From a virus (taxonomy: Duplodnaviria; Caudoviricetes), in the IMG/VR virus record IMGVR_UViG_3300031519_000015, positions 1 to 64,000 of that record: a stretch of 64,000 nucleotides of DNA, one strand, 5' to 3'. How positions within the stretch are numbered: the first letter of the stretch is position 1; each line of letters begins with the position of its first letter. This document shows positions 57,283 through 60,524 of this stretch, piece by piece. Both the position numbers and the translations under genes were made by a program. Under the pieces are notes generated by a model. That model was not told where the DNA came from. It ran no database searches and worked only from the letters and a program-made list of their open reading frames with translations.

Positions 57283-57764
57283 GTTCTTTTACCTTTCTCT
57301 AATAGTATATCTGCTTTACGTTTTAATTCATATATTTTACCGTCAAGTGCCTGTATCCTTGACTCTGCAATCTCACGATAGTGATCTACTGTTGCTGCGT
57401 ATTCATCGTTTACAATTATAAGTGGTCTACGTTCCTCATATTTAGTATACTTACTAAACTGATCGTGGTTTTTTGCAACCATTTTATTTAGCTTGTCGTT
57501 ACACCAATTTAGAGCAATCTTCTGCATATTTAATTCATCTTGTAGATGTGTGGAGTAGCTATATAGTTGATACGACCAATCAAATAGTTCTGCTTGGGTA
57601 AGAGAACTGATGGTTTCCCTATCAGCATTAGCACATCTATGCCAATCATCTCTAAACTTCTTATTAAACCTAGCATTGCTGGCATTCAAGAAGTCATCAA
57701 CCATAGCTTTCAAGTCAGCCAACTGCTCACTCGCCGTTTTCAATTTGATCTCTCCATTGCTCAT
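57279..57764 (-). CDS. Hypothetical coiled-coil protein (161 aa)
   Basis: All-helical, charged, overlaps both neighbours. Confidence 0.6.
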   Translation of the reverse strand: MSNGEIKLKTASEQLADLKAMVDDFLNASNARFNKKFRDDWHRCANADRETISSLTQAELFDWSYQLYSYSTHLQDELNMQKIALNWCNDKLNKMVAKNHDQFSKYTKYEERRPLIIVNDEYAATVDHYREIAESRIQALDGKIYELKRKADILLEKGKRT

Positions 57765-58152
57765 CTGTATCTGAATACCTCAATACTATTATATCAATTT
57801 TGTTCAATCCACACCACTCTATTTTATCTTCATCCTTTGCTTTTGCAATGGCAAAGTCTGCTTTATTCTTATGAAAGAATGGCGTATACTTATAATGCTG
57901 TTGACCATGCACCTCTACAGCTAGCATAATCTGTGGTATATAAAAGTCTAAATACAACACGCCTTTTCTGTGCGATGGGGTACTTCCCGGCAATTTTACT
58001 TCTTCAAGTATTCTATAACTATGGTAGATAGTCTTCAAGAGATTTCTTGCGCGAACGTGAAACTTTGATCTCTTCCGCTTGTCGTTTGCGTCTACTGAAT
58101 AGCTTGTTAAATTCCAAGCGTACTCTCTCCCATTTATACCAGTAACTTTCAT
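57727..58152 (-). CDS. DUF559/Vsr-like PD-(D/E)XK endonuclease (141 aa)
   Basis: 'ILEEVKLP','LYLDFYIP..LAVEVHGQQHY','DEDKIEWC'. Confidence 0.8.
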   Translation of the reverse strand: MKVTGINGREYAWNLTSYSVDANDKRKRSKFHVRARNLLKTIYHSYRILEEVKLPGSTPSHRKGVLYLDFYIPQIMLAVEVHGQQHYKYTPFFHKNKADFAIAKAKDEDKIEWCGLNKIDIIVLRYSDTDEQWRDQIENGE

Positions 58153-58222
58153 TCAATATTCCTATCACAAGTTTAGCCAGAATAACTCCAGCAGCAATTT
58201 CAAATATATTAATTATACTCAT
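58019..58222 (-). CDS. Small putative membrane protein (67 aa)
   Basis: N-terminal hydrophobic helix IFEIAAGVILAKLVIGIL and a basic tail. AAGGA RBS and ATGA coupling to the upstream ORF. Overlaps the nuclease gene by 134 nt. Confidence 0.45.
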   Translation of the reverse strand: MSIINIFEIAAGVILAKLVIGILNESYWYKWERVRLEFNKLFSRRKRQAEEIKVSRSRKKSLEDYLP

Positions 58223-58338
58223 TTTTTAATTTCCTTGCTACCCCTAGTGTTTTTAGGCACATAGGGGCAGTTCTTACACCCGCTACCACAACAAGCACCT
58301 CTACTAAGTAAATACTCTCTACTCAGTGGTTGTGTCAT
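58219..58338 (-). CDS. DUF5522-like Cys-rich peptide not in track (39 aa)
   Basis: My translation is [39 protein letters not shown], containing the 'YLL.RG.CCGSGC.NCPY' signature. ATGA overlaps at both ends. Confidence 0.8.
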
Positions 58339-59303
58339 TGATTGATTTCTCCACCAGCTCTTGTAATCTGTGTAGCAAATACGCTCAAATTTACGTTCTC
58401 ATTAATAGTTCTCACTGAACCGTCAGCGTAACAAGCGTTCATAATGCCGGGATGAAAACTAAATGCTTCACCATTATTAGTAACTCCAAAAGGAATATTA
58501 CCAGCACAATTTTTACACTTGTCTCCATTGCTATCCATGCCGTCTAATTTAAATGGCCCAACACTATCAGCCCAACCGATACACTGATTAGTATCACCAG
58601 TAGGGGTTCCACCATTATTAGTATCAGCTTTATAAGTGTCAGGTCTACTTCCACATTCAATAATCAACATAGTATTAGAAAATCCATCTCTAATGTGAGC
58701 ATCTCTAGTTACAGCGTCTTTAATTAGACACCCTTCGTTTCTATCTTTTGCTGCATAGATATCAGAAGCAGCAGGGAATACTTTACTCTTGACTCCCGTG
58801 AATGTCTCATAATCTGTATATCCAAGATTATTAGGGTTCATGCTAATAGCAGCACTGTCATCATCTCTACTAGGCCCATCCACACTAGCATAACCACCAG
58901 CGGGAGGCATAGCAGATGGACACTTGAAGACATTTAAATTTGCAGATAATACTGTAGCATTTTGCTCCCACCAATTTTTAGTAAAATCATATTGGTCTGC
59001 TATCGCCCTTTGTTCCATTTGCCCTAGAACAAACGCTCTCCAACTATGCTCTGTGCCAGAACGATTGCCTGTGTTAGATTTACCAGCAGAATCAATAGTC
59101 CAAGAAGCAGCGGGAAAGTATCGTTGTGAGTCCAAGCTACTGTGCATAGCAAGACCTTGTTGTTTTAAGTTATTTGCACATGACATTCTTCGTGCAGCTT
59201 CTCTAGCTTGCTGTACGGCAGGCAACAAAAGTCCAACAAGTACGCCGATAATAGCAATGACCACAAGTAGTTCGATAAGTGTAAAACCTTTTCGTTTAAA
59301 CAT
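58335..59303 (-). CDS. DUF1559 (SBP_bac_10) prepilin-type protein with H-X9-DG motif
   Basis: Start MFKRKG at 59303 (AAGGA RBS). G|[47 protein letters not shown], and C-terminal [12 protein letters not shown]. Confidence 0.95.
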
Positions 59304-59364
59304 ATCGTGATTCCTTTTCAATTAATAGTAGGTATAAAGCGAGAGGTACACATTGTACCCTTAA

Positions 59365-59389
59365 TGTAATATTATACCCCTGTAATATT
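59365..59389 (-). promoter_or_regulatory. Putative -10 box (TATAAT) flanked by TGTAATATT direct repeats upstream of DUF1559
   Basis: - strand GGGGTATAAT (TATAAT = 59371-59376). TGTAATATT occurs at 59365-59373 and 59381-59389. No consensus -35. Confidence 0.45.
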
Positions 59390-59411
59390 TTAAAACAGTG
59401 TTAGGATTGTA

Positions 59412-60524
59412 TTAAAATAACTCTTTAATCTGATCGTATACAAGCTGGGAAATATCTGGGTTATCATTTAAGAATATGGCTAAATTATTTGACCCCTGAA
59501 ACTTAAAAAACCTTTCAATGTCTTCTGGCTTGTCAGGCACTTCATTTGCTTTCATAATTTTTTGTATTGCCGGATGTTCTAGGTTATCAATCGCACATTG
59601 AATCGTATACCAAGCTCCAGCAGTTTTAATCAGTCTAAACTCACAGGCTATTTGCACAACCTCTTGAACTTCATCCAGACCAATTCCATAACGAATCCAA
59701 CTTTCTGCTGTGCTGTTTGGAGTACCACCAGCGCATGATGTTTTAACATTCCAATTAGCAATCTGACCAACGTGAGGTCCAGTATCCTTTGGAACTTGCC
59801 ATCTACCACGATGGGTAATAACCATATTAGTACCAGCCTGATATTGCAACATGTTGCCACAGTCTGCCATCTTTGCTGGTGCGTATGGAGAACCACCAGT
59901 GTTTGCAATATTATGAGTCACAGCAATAAGAATTGTTTTATTCTTCATGAGAGAGCCGCTGATACGCTTAAAAAACATAGATAACAATCTAGGTAGTGCG
60001 TTACGTACACCTGTTCGCACTTCACCGTCAAGCTCTACTGATGGAACCATATTGGATAATGAGTCTGCGATAATTAAACAACCCGGATCATTGTTAATAT
60101 AATACTCTGTAATATTTAAGAATTCTTCTGCCGACAATATCTTATCATCTGTAGACTGTATAATTAAAATCCGCTCAGGATCTAAGCCCTTTATGCCATC
60201 GAAGTTTTGCTTAGAGAGTCTTCCCTCTGTGTTGAGATAAATAACACGTTTGTCTTGAGCTTGACATTTGGCGGCGAAGTGTAAGGCAGTTGTTGTCTTT
60301 CCAGACTTAGGATCTCCCGTCATGACGACCACAGAACCTTCTCGTAGTCCACCTCCAAGAGCAATGTCTAAAGCTGGAGACACACCAATTACTTCTAGCT
60401 GATTAATATTTTCTAGGACTTCAGTACCAGTGCTAACAACATCTCCGTATTTACTCACAACGGAATTACTTACAACGTCTGTTTCAAATTTATTTACTAC
60501 TTTTTTCTTCTTAACCTTGCTCAT
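59412..60524 (-). CDS. recA: RecA/UvsX-like recombinase
   Basis: 'SPALDIALGGGL','GDPKSGKTT','IYLNTEGR','IIADSLSNMVP'. Confidence 0.92.
   Translation of the reverse strand: MSKVKKKKVVNKFETDVVSNSVVSKYGDVVSTGTEVLENINQLEVIGVSPALDIALGGGLREGSVVVMTGDPKSGKTTTALHFAAKCQAQDKRVIYLNTEGRLSKQNFDGIKGLDPERILIIQSTDDKILSAEEFLNITEYYINNDPGCLIIADSLSNMVPSVELDGEVRTGVRNALPRLLSMFFKRISGSLMKNKTILIAVTHNIANTGGSPYAPAKMADCGNMLQYQAGTNMVITHRGRWQVPKDTGPHVGQIANWNVKTSCAGGTPNSTAESWIRYGIGLDEVQEVVQIACEFRLIKTAGAWYTIQCAIDNLEHPAIQKIMKANEVPDKPEDIERFFKFQGSNNLAIFLNDNPDISQLVYDQIKELF

Follow-up and report, generated by a model that had tools for sequence, protein, structure and literature searches.

The virus record IMGVR_UViG_3300031519_000015 (IMG/VR; Duplodnaviria, Caudoviricetes) carries a gene for a prepilin-like protein of the DUF1559 family. 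The record is 73 kb long with an estimated completeness of 46%, and its first 64,000 nucleotides, referred to here as the window, were analyzed. We show that the phage took this gene from its hosts, where it encodes one particular DUF1559 protein of small-genome marine planctomycetes, and that it was passed between two distantly related phage lineages. As for its role, we tentatively favor the reading that it is an auxiliary gene of host origin that feeds the DUF1559-dependent envelope machinery of the host, possibly for the scavenging of organic phosphorus. No paralogous family of planctomycetes is larger than DUF1559, which numbers 40 to more than 100 copies per genome, some of them essential. 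The function of DUF1559 proteins is unknown (PMC10632474; PMC8567305). They fractionate with membranes, and secreted proteins flank them (PMC8567305).

The best cellular matches of the phage protein are 48-66% identical to it, and the closest relatives all come from metagenome-assembled genomes (MAGs) of Planctomycetia. Two MAGs that carry the labels Planctomycetaceae and Pirellulales have best matches of 65-66% identity, and the next of their 19-28 paralogs reaches only 38%, which indicates that the phage gene is the ortholog of one specific paralog. An initial annotation, made from the sequence of the window, had proposed a planctomycete host, and both the source of the closest relatives and this orthology support that proposal. 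Of the 151 genomes of the order that were sampled, only 4 contain close orthologs (E up to 1e-80), and these 4 are 2.8-3.9 Mb in size. In trees, the viral copies stand apart from a well-supported cellular clade (98/95). With regard to one or two captures, the tree gives a trichotomy with long outgroup branches, while a larger FastTree tree joins all viral clades. As expected of a host-derived auxiliary gene, it is nested among or sister to host genes in these trees, and in the viral genome it is flanked by genes for UvsX, DnaB, primase and homing endonuclease.

Every cellular relative examined, at 48-66% identity, lies in one conserved operon that is headed by DUF1559. The DUF1559 gene is followed by a Phytase-like propeller (PF13449), a small lipoprotein of 145-177 amino acids with a weak CarboxypepD_reg match, and a choice-of-anchor I protein (PF22494/NF038117). 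PSCyt1/PSCyt2/PSD1 and DUF1501 genes lie downstream of the operon, and the same contigs carry sulfatase genes. The contigs are of planctomycete type, and one of them is 2.9 Mb long.

The phage copies have evolved under strong purifying selection. Pairwise ratios of nonsynonymous to synonymous change (dN/dS) are 0.06-0.2, with a median of 0.14, at a dS of about 1, which is near saturation. There are at least 20 full-length viral copies and all are intact. The cellular clade has 115 columns with a conservation of 95% or more, and 84 of these (73%) are kept in the phages. Five substitutions are fixed in the phage copies (N58D, G226A, R263C, H298R and M293A, the last inside the H-X9-DG stretch), and a C-terminal tail of about 10 residues that the cellular clade carries is missing. 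The GC content of the gene is 40%, compared to 44-57% in cellular orthologs. The initial annotation had suggested long residence in phages rather than recent capture, and the ameliorated GC content, the high dS and the low dN/dS all agree with that. These data also bear on whether the gene is a neutral or decaying passenger without a role in infection. Its operon partners were not found in this phage record, and it occupies a variable slot beside a homing-endonuclease-like gene, as a passenger might. We nevertheless regard a passenger as very improbable, given the purifying selection, the intact state of every full-length copy and a regulatory architecture that is kept across lineages.

The gene tree conflicts with the phage backbone. 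The RecA proteins of the window and the contig L002, both of lineage A, are 91% identical to each other, whereas the RecA proteins of lineage B are 37-38% identical to that of the window; the DUF1559 copies of the window and L002 nest inside the lineage-B copies. Forcing the lineage-A copies to be monophyletic costs 179 log-likelihood units and was rejected by the approximately unbiased test (p 7e-5), with the lineage-A group set from synteny and RecA after the first tree was seen. Nucleotide identity between the lineages is 85% and ends at the borders of the coding sequence. In G010, another lineage-A phage, DUF1559 lies 42 kb away, and the slot between recA and the nuclease holds an unrelated small open reading frame (ORF) together with the same 67-amino-acid peptide and nuclease. 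From the arrangement in G010 and the limits of the shared identity, the mobile unit is DUF1559 with its leader. Here, a host gene equipped with a promoter has passed from one phage to another, unrelated one that has the same host.

We also considered that the contig could be cellular DNA or a chimera, in which case the DUF1559 gene would simply be bacterial. For 7 ORFs tested in the presumed structural region (window 57-35199, + strand), there were no PHROG matches at E 1e-5. This would fit cellular DNA, and it equally places the phage lineage far from cultured phages. However, the record is an IMG/VR virus, two related contigs (157 and 195 kb) have a completeness rating of 100%, and genes of phage type were recognized (UvsX, DnaB, primase, PhoH and homing endonuclease, with rIIA/rIIB in lineage B). 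The gene order recA, DUF1559, DUF5522, peptide, nuclease is repeated in about 12 independent IMG/VR contigs. The GC content of the window is 36.8%, and there is no GC break. The initial annotation had named a chimera with a GC discontinuity at the borders as a possible refutation. Because the gene order recurs and the GC content is uniform, an assembly chimera is ruled out, and with the gene itself at a lower GC content than its cellular orthologs, a cellular contig is the least probable of all the explanations weighed here.

The protein is a full member of its family. PF07596 matches with E 1.2e-40 and 140.7 bits (cut-off 23.3) and is covered over profile positions 1-266 of 268. The prepilin-type motif is recognized by both TIGR02532 (E 5.8e-8; 34.4 bits, cut-off 21.2) and PF07963 N_methyl (E 1.4e-8; 32.3 bits, cut-off 16.3), and the H-X9-DG profile TIGR04294 gives E 9.7e-8 and 31.5 bits (cut-off 19). 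Thus, the three models that the initial annotation had singled out (PF07596, TIGR02532 and TIGR04294) all score above their curated cut-offs, and the intact 322-amino-acid gene with the prepilin site KRKG/ and H-X9-DG that it described is there in full. H284, D294 and G295, which form the H-X9-DG motif, are conserved in the family alignment, and all 27 family-invariant residues are kept in the phage protein. Assignment to GspG was rejected, since the equivalog model TIGR01710 gave 36.2 bits against a cut-off of 88.85, with the alignment limited to the N-terminal third. Some phage copies (L002, L009, L014, L017 and L018) have leaders of 16-20 residues and, at position -1 of the prepilin cleavage site, Ala where Gly is nearly universal. 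Neither a prepilin peptidase (peptidase A24) gene nor a second pilin-like gene was found in the 73-kb, 46%-complete record.

A confident AlphaFold2 model built from 54 homologs (predicted local distance difference test score 92.1, predicted template modeling score 0.86) shows an N-terminal helix of 52 residues and a head of mixed alpha/beta structure. A Foldseek search of the PDB matched the pilin helix only, and one of BFVD found nothing. In an exhaustive VIA-align search, nearly all matches were type IV pilins or pseudopilins, including each of the top 19, but with low Z scores of 2.1-4.4. The predicted structure would fit a pilin core enlarged by sizeable insertions, short of proof. A pilin-like core with a large, variable head could also suit a modifier of adhesion or particle attachment. 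Here the phage copy would change what the fibers of the infected cell bind, such as glycans or particles, and so keep the cell in a microenvironment rich in nutrients or hosts, independent of phosphorus. The membrane fractionation and secreted-protein neighbors of DUF1559 proteins (PMC8567305) would fit such a role, as would the finding, described below, that the host regulatory box is not confined to the phytase-like operon. On the other hand, nothing points to a ligand, and the orthology to a gene of the phytase-like operon and the co-captured genes favor a function tied to that module. We therefore find an adhesion role quite unlikely.

Among viruses, IMG/VR holds 24 close relatives of the gene at 69-95% identity, and a profile-pattern scan of that database gave 303 matching stretches. 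The best 80 of these 303 lie mostly on AT-rich contigs (27-40% GC), distant paralogs included. Very AT-rich viral contigs (27-32% GC, at most 122 kb; L201-L212 and others) carry distant DUF1559 paralogs of 30-37% identity, which are presumably independent captures of other family members. A tblastn search of the 50,697 deposited phage genomes in INPHARED gave no match. PHROG matches were limited to residues 1-52, the pilin helix, the best being phrog_3433 "pilin" over residues 3-40, and the DUF1559 domain itself had none. A literature search found no paper that pairs DUF1559 with a phage. The statement in the initial annotation that this is not a standard phage gene therefore holds for deposited phages, PHROGs and the literature, but the 303 stretches show that the gene is not rare in viral metagenome contigs.

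Some relatives of this phage carry further genes of the host operon. A deeper viral clade, at 60-66% identity, occurs in rIIA/rIIB-type phage contexts of 33-37% GC. In L057, and likewise in the IMG/VR contigs L180 and L181, DUF1559 is followed by a 131-amino-acid lipoprotein and a 342-amino-acid Phytase-like gene. L055 has DUF1559 and then a 333-amino-acid Phytase-like gene without the lipoprotein gene, and L056, of the deep group, has DUF1559 with neither. The phage lipoprotein is 29-35% identical to the small protein of the host operon, and the phage Phytase-like protein is about 30% identical to that of the operon and about 130 residues shorter. The nearest cellular relatives of the phage Phytase-like protein are planctomycete proteins, some of them encoded on the same contigs as DUF1559 orthologs. 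For the co-carried genes of L055, L057, L180 and L181, the closest cellular counterparts are those in the operon itself. In lineage-B phages (L003-L007, L012, L055-L057), an ORF of 184-189 amino acids always follows the DUF1559 module (L003:7134-7700), and Pfam gave nothing for the 184-188-amino-acid ORF after this module. Lineage-B phages without the Phytase-like gene have a conserved 42-amino-acid ORF between the module and that ORF (L003:7016-7144).

The partner genes help to weigh superinfection exclusion or pilus interference, the idea put forward with the initial annotation. A phage pilin-like protein could poison or re-specify the host pilus or pseudopilus, which would remove the receptor of competitors or alter attachment. 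With its intact prepilin signal, the protein would be expected to arrive at the assembly machinery. The five fixed differences, the lost C-terminal tail, and the Ala at -1 and long leaders in some copies also speak for this idea, and gene sharing among co-infecting phage lineages would suit a competition gene. Still, the lipoprotein and phytase-like partners of the sister phages would be superfluous for a jamming protein, and such a protein would not be expected to show such ortholog-like conservation in its columns, its family-invariant residues and its dN/dS. PADLOC gave nothing relevant. We consider exclusion unlikely. Given this conservation and the presence of both partner genes in sister phages, jamming fits poorly, and an auxiliary role that preserves the host function fits better.

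The region upstream of the gene has a common architecture in the phages. Every phage DUF1559 copy is preceded by a direct-repeat box, CTAACA-N5-CTAACA, which in lineage A is degenerate (TTAATA-N5-CTAACA). Whatever the neighboring gene, the box is followed by 22-33 nt, the -10 element GGGTATAAT, about 10 nt, a hairpin of 5-8 bp, a pyrimidine-rich stretch and the ribosome-binding site. The intergenic TATAAT noted in the initial annotation is GGTATAAT in the 90-nt gap upstream of DUF1559, and the conservation of this -10 motif in every phage lineage supports the claim that the gene has its own promoter. The stem sequence of the hairpin varies among phages while its pairing is kept: 91% of cells are paired compared to 72% in shuffles (0/500), slid controls gave 29-55%, and double changes were seen in 5/5 pairs. 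Rfam gave nothing for the leader, and no terminator-like site was found after the DUF1559 gene. The box occurs only once in the window, as does the pattern of box plus TATAAT. In the two complete phage genomes (157 and 195 kb), the perfect box is found upstream of DUF1559 only.

An attempt at host identification by scanning 401 planctomycete genomes for CTAACA-N5-CTAACA was abandoned, as there was no enrichment over the reversed control. None of 30 such sites fetched from planctomycete genomes adjoins a DUF1559 gene. Separately, intergenic ATGCTAACA-N5-CTAACAT sites were seen in planctomycete genomes of 55-77% GC (L099, L100, L108-L111), with near-identical sequence downstream of them in L110 and L111. 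These sites possibly belong to another regulator, unrelated to DUF1559.

The cellular orthologs have a box of their own, made of four tandem CTCAY units at 11-bp spacing, across genomes of 47-61% GC. Tandem CTCAY-N6 units lie, among other places, at L033:9700-10000 and L026:1900-2154. In 41 genomes of the family, three-unit CTCAY boxes are about nine times more common than in the reversed control, and DUF1559 genes belonging to various paralog types make up 11 of the roughly 25 ORFs downstream. Specificity of the box for the phytase-like operon was thereby ruled out, since it precedes many DUF1559 paralogs. Boxes of three to four units (CTCAY-N6) also lie upstream of an LTD/PATR protein (L060) and an amidohydrolase (L066). 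Two-unit boxes precede pstS in 20 of 31 loci of one planctomycete family (L059, L119-L147), compared to a background elsewhere of 0.003 per 700 nt, and they sit about 10 nt before a TACnAT-like -10 element. PhoB and PhoP sites are direct repeats at 11-bp spacing that stand in for the -35 element. Because the same box precedes pstS and resembles these repeats, CTCAY is probably the Pho box of the family, and the host operon looks to be under phosphate-starvation regulation. If so, part of the DUF1559 expansion falls in the phosphate-starvation response. The operon's PF13449 family includes an "atypical alkaline phosphatase" that is strongly induced under phosphorus limitation in Nodularia (PMC9846622), and cyanophage genes under host PhoBR control provide a precedent (PMC10976474). 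Scoring against a position weight matrix derived from the boxes of pstS placed the phage boxes of lineage B within the top 2e-5 to 6e-4 of positions. A strong Pho-box claim for the window's own copy was dropped after this scoring.

Taken together, the results show that large AT-rich marine phages captured the gene, with one clade also taking the lipoprotein and phytase-like genes. From there, the auxiliary reading would run as follows. In an infected cell, the host prepilin peptidase would cut and N-methylate the phage preprotein, which would then join the type II secretion or type IV pilus-like machinery of the host, replacing or adding to the host ortholog. As a result, export, display or uptake by the organophosphate-scavenging module might be sustained or boosted while host transcription declines. 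The gene would then count as an auxiliary metabolic gene of the kind that pstS is in cyanophages, and the repeat box may hold it under host PhoB-type control, a step that is weak for the window's own copy.

Several points weigh against this auxiliary reading. To our knowledge, the function of DUF1559 proteins is experimentally uncharacterized. The predicted phosphorus link rests on a putative box and on the family names of neighboring genes. CTCAY precedes many unrelated DUF1559 paralogs and may thus mark DUF1559 genes generally rather than phosphorus scavenging. The phage repeat unit is CTAAC and not CTCAY, a difference at 1 of 5 positions, and the window's own box ranks in the top 0.16% (1.6e-3) by the pstS matrix, which is about chance for 200 nt. 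The PF13449 Phytase-like gene was not found in this incomplete record, so the partner would have to be encoded by the host. Since the tested structural ORFs have no PHROG matches, phage identity rests on the IMG/VR classification, the replication genes and the genome architecture. Finally, the GC content of the phages (32-38%) is well below that of the candidate host MAGs (47-61%). Phage-host GC gaps of such size are known for T4-like cyanophages of Synechococcus.

A bolder form of the idea, which we regard as somewhat unlikely, is that DUF1559 proteins serve a planctomycete secretion or uptake machine as pseudopilin adaptors, each specific for a cargo or substrate, with part of the family Pho-regulated. 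Phages would have hijacked one adaptor as a Pho-responsive auxiliary gene, sometimes with its phytase-like cargo and lipoprotein. If this were true, it would be a kind of auxiliary metabolic gene not described before, acting through the host pilus or secretion apparatus, and it would open a first functional route into the most expanded family of paralogs in Planctomycetota. In any case, the phage ortholog, its travelling partner genes and the pstS-type box yield a testable hypothesis for DUF1559, namely phosphorus scavenging with coupling to neighboring secreted proteins. By carrying this gene, whole lineages of uncultured marine phages of 150-200 kb stand out as likely viruses of planctomycetes. 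We know of no lytic isolates of such viruses, although no search aimed at them was made.

The features around the gene are listed in Table 1. The initial annotation had placed the insertion between recA and a nuclease, and the neighbors do match PF00154 and phrog_97 upstream and phrog_9084 downstream. The DUF1559 ORF spans 58335-59321 (- strand), and its start codon is the ATG at 59303; the TTG at 59321 is not needed because AAGGA lies 8 nt upstream of that ATG.

Table 1. Features of the DUF1559 locus, in window positions
Feature	Position	Strand	Remarks
UvsX/RecA-like recombinase	59412..60524	-	Upstream backbone neighbor; PF00154 7e-21, phrog_97 1e-34
Direct-repeat box TTAATA-N5-CTAAC, 11-bp period	59400..59415	-	Degenerate lineage-A form of CTAACA-N5-CTAACA
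-10 element GGTATAAT (GGGTATAAT)	59371..59378	-	Kept in all phage lineages
7-bp stem-loop	59344..59360	-	About 10 nt after the -10, at the predicted transcript 5' end
Ribosome-binding site AAGGA	59312..59316	-	8 nt before ATG; kept in L013
DUF1559 / H-X9-DG prepilin-like protein, 322 amino acids	58335..59303	-	Predicted cleavage after G6; E+5 present
Cys-rich DUF5522-like ORF, 39 amino acids	58219..58338	-	PF17653 2e-9 (above cut-off); ATGA-coupled to DUF1559
67-amino-acid peptide	58019..58222	-	N-terminal hydrophobic transmembrane helix; belongs to phage backbone
Homing-endonuclease-like gene beside variable slot	57727..58152	-	phrog_9084 7.6e-13; phrog_559 HNH 7e-12

The ATGA coupling of DUF1559 to two small ORFs proved to be real, with overlaps at 58335-58338 (DUF1559 and the 39-amino-acid ORF) and 58219-58222 (the 39- and 67-amino-acid ORFs); the first small ORF matches PF17653 and the second has a hydrophobic helix. 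A conserved three-gene cassette, which the same annotation had proposed, is not borne out. The synteny of relatives and G010, which keeps the membrane peptide with the nuclease and has no DUF1559 there, rule out the cassette as a unit. The DUF5522-like ORF occurs in one lineage only, in lineage-A phages with DUF1559 at this site, and is absent in two members. Ten relatives retain the 67-amino-acid ORF intact, among them one that lacks DUF1559 here, and the ORF shares 134 nt with the nuclease gene in a different reading frame. With a dN/dS of 0.24 in the non-overlapping part of the peptide and the dS of the nuclease halved inside the overlap, the two look like a genuine overlapping gene pair.

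Compared to its cellular DUF1559 / SBP_bac_10 ortholog, which heads the operon, the phage protein has the same domain architecture, 27/27 invariant residues and 48-66% identity, and the upstream layout of 11-bp tandem repeats and then a hairpin is similar. It differs in its 40% GC, short leader, missing C-terminal tail, five substitutions, CTAAC unit and the absence of operon partners from the record. Like phage morons, the gene has its own promoter, is variably present in a fixed backbone slot and is exchanged between phages, although no terminator was found here. PHROG 3433 "pilin," in the moron/auxiliary metabolic gene category, matches the N-terminal 40 residues, a match confined to the pilin helix. 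With GspG and type IV pilins, the protein shares a class III signal peptide (G/FTLIE, Glu+5) and an extended helix at the N terminus, and the resemblance of its core fold to theirs is weak (Z at most 4.4); it falls far below the GspG cut-off, and its head is about twice the size and carries H-X9-DG. Like pstS and phoA of cyanophages (PMC10976474), the gene is host-derived, probably of the Pho regulon, and found in large lytic marine phages with a response-regulator-type repeat box. Here, Pho control is a prediction only, the host is a planctomycete, and the product is a pilin-like membrane protein rather than a transporter subunit or an enzyme.

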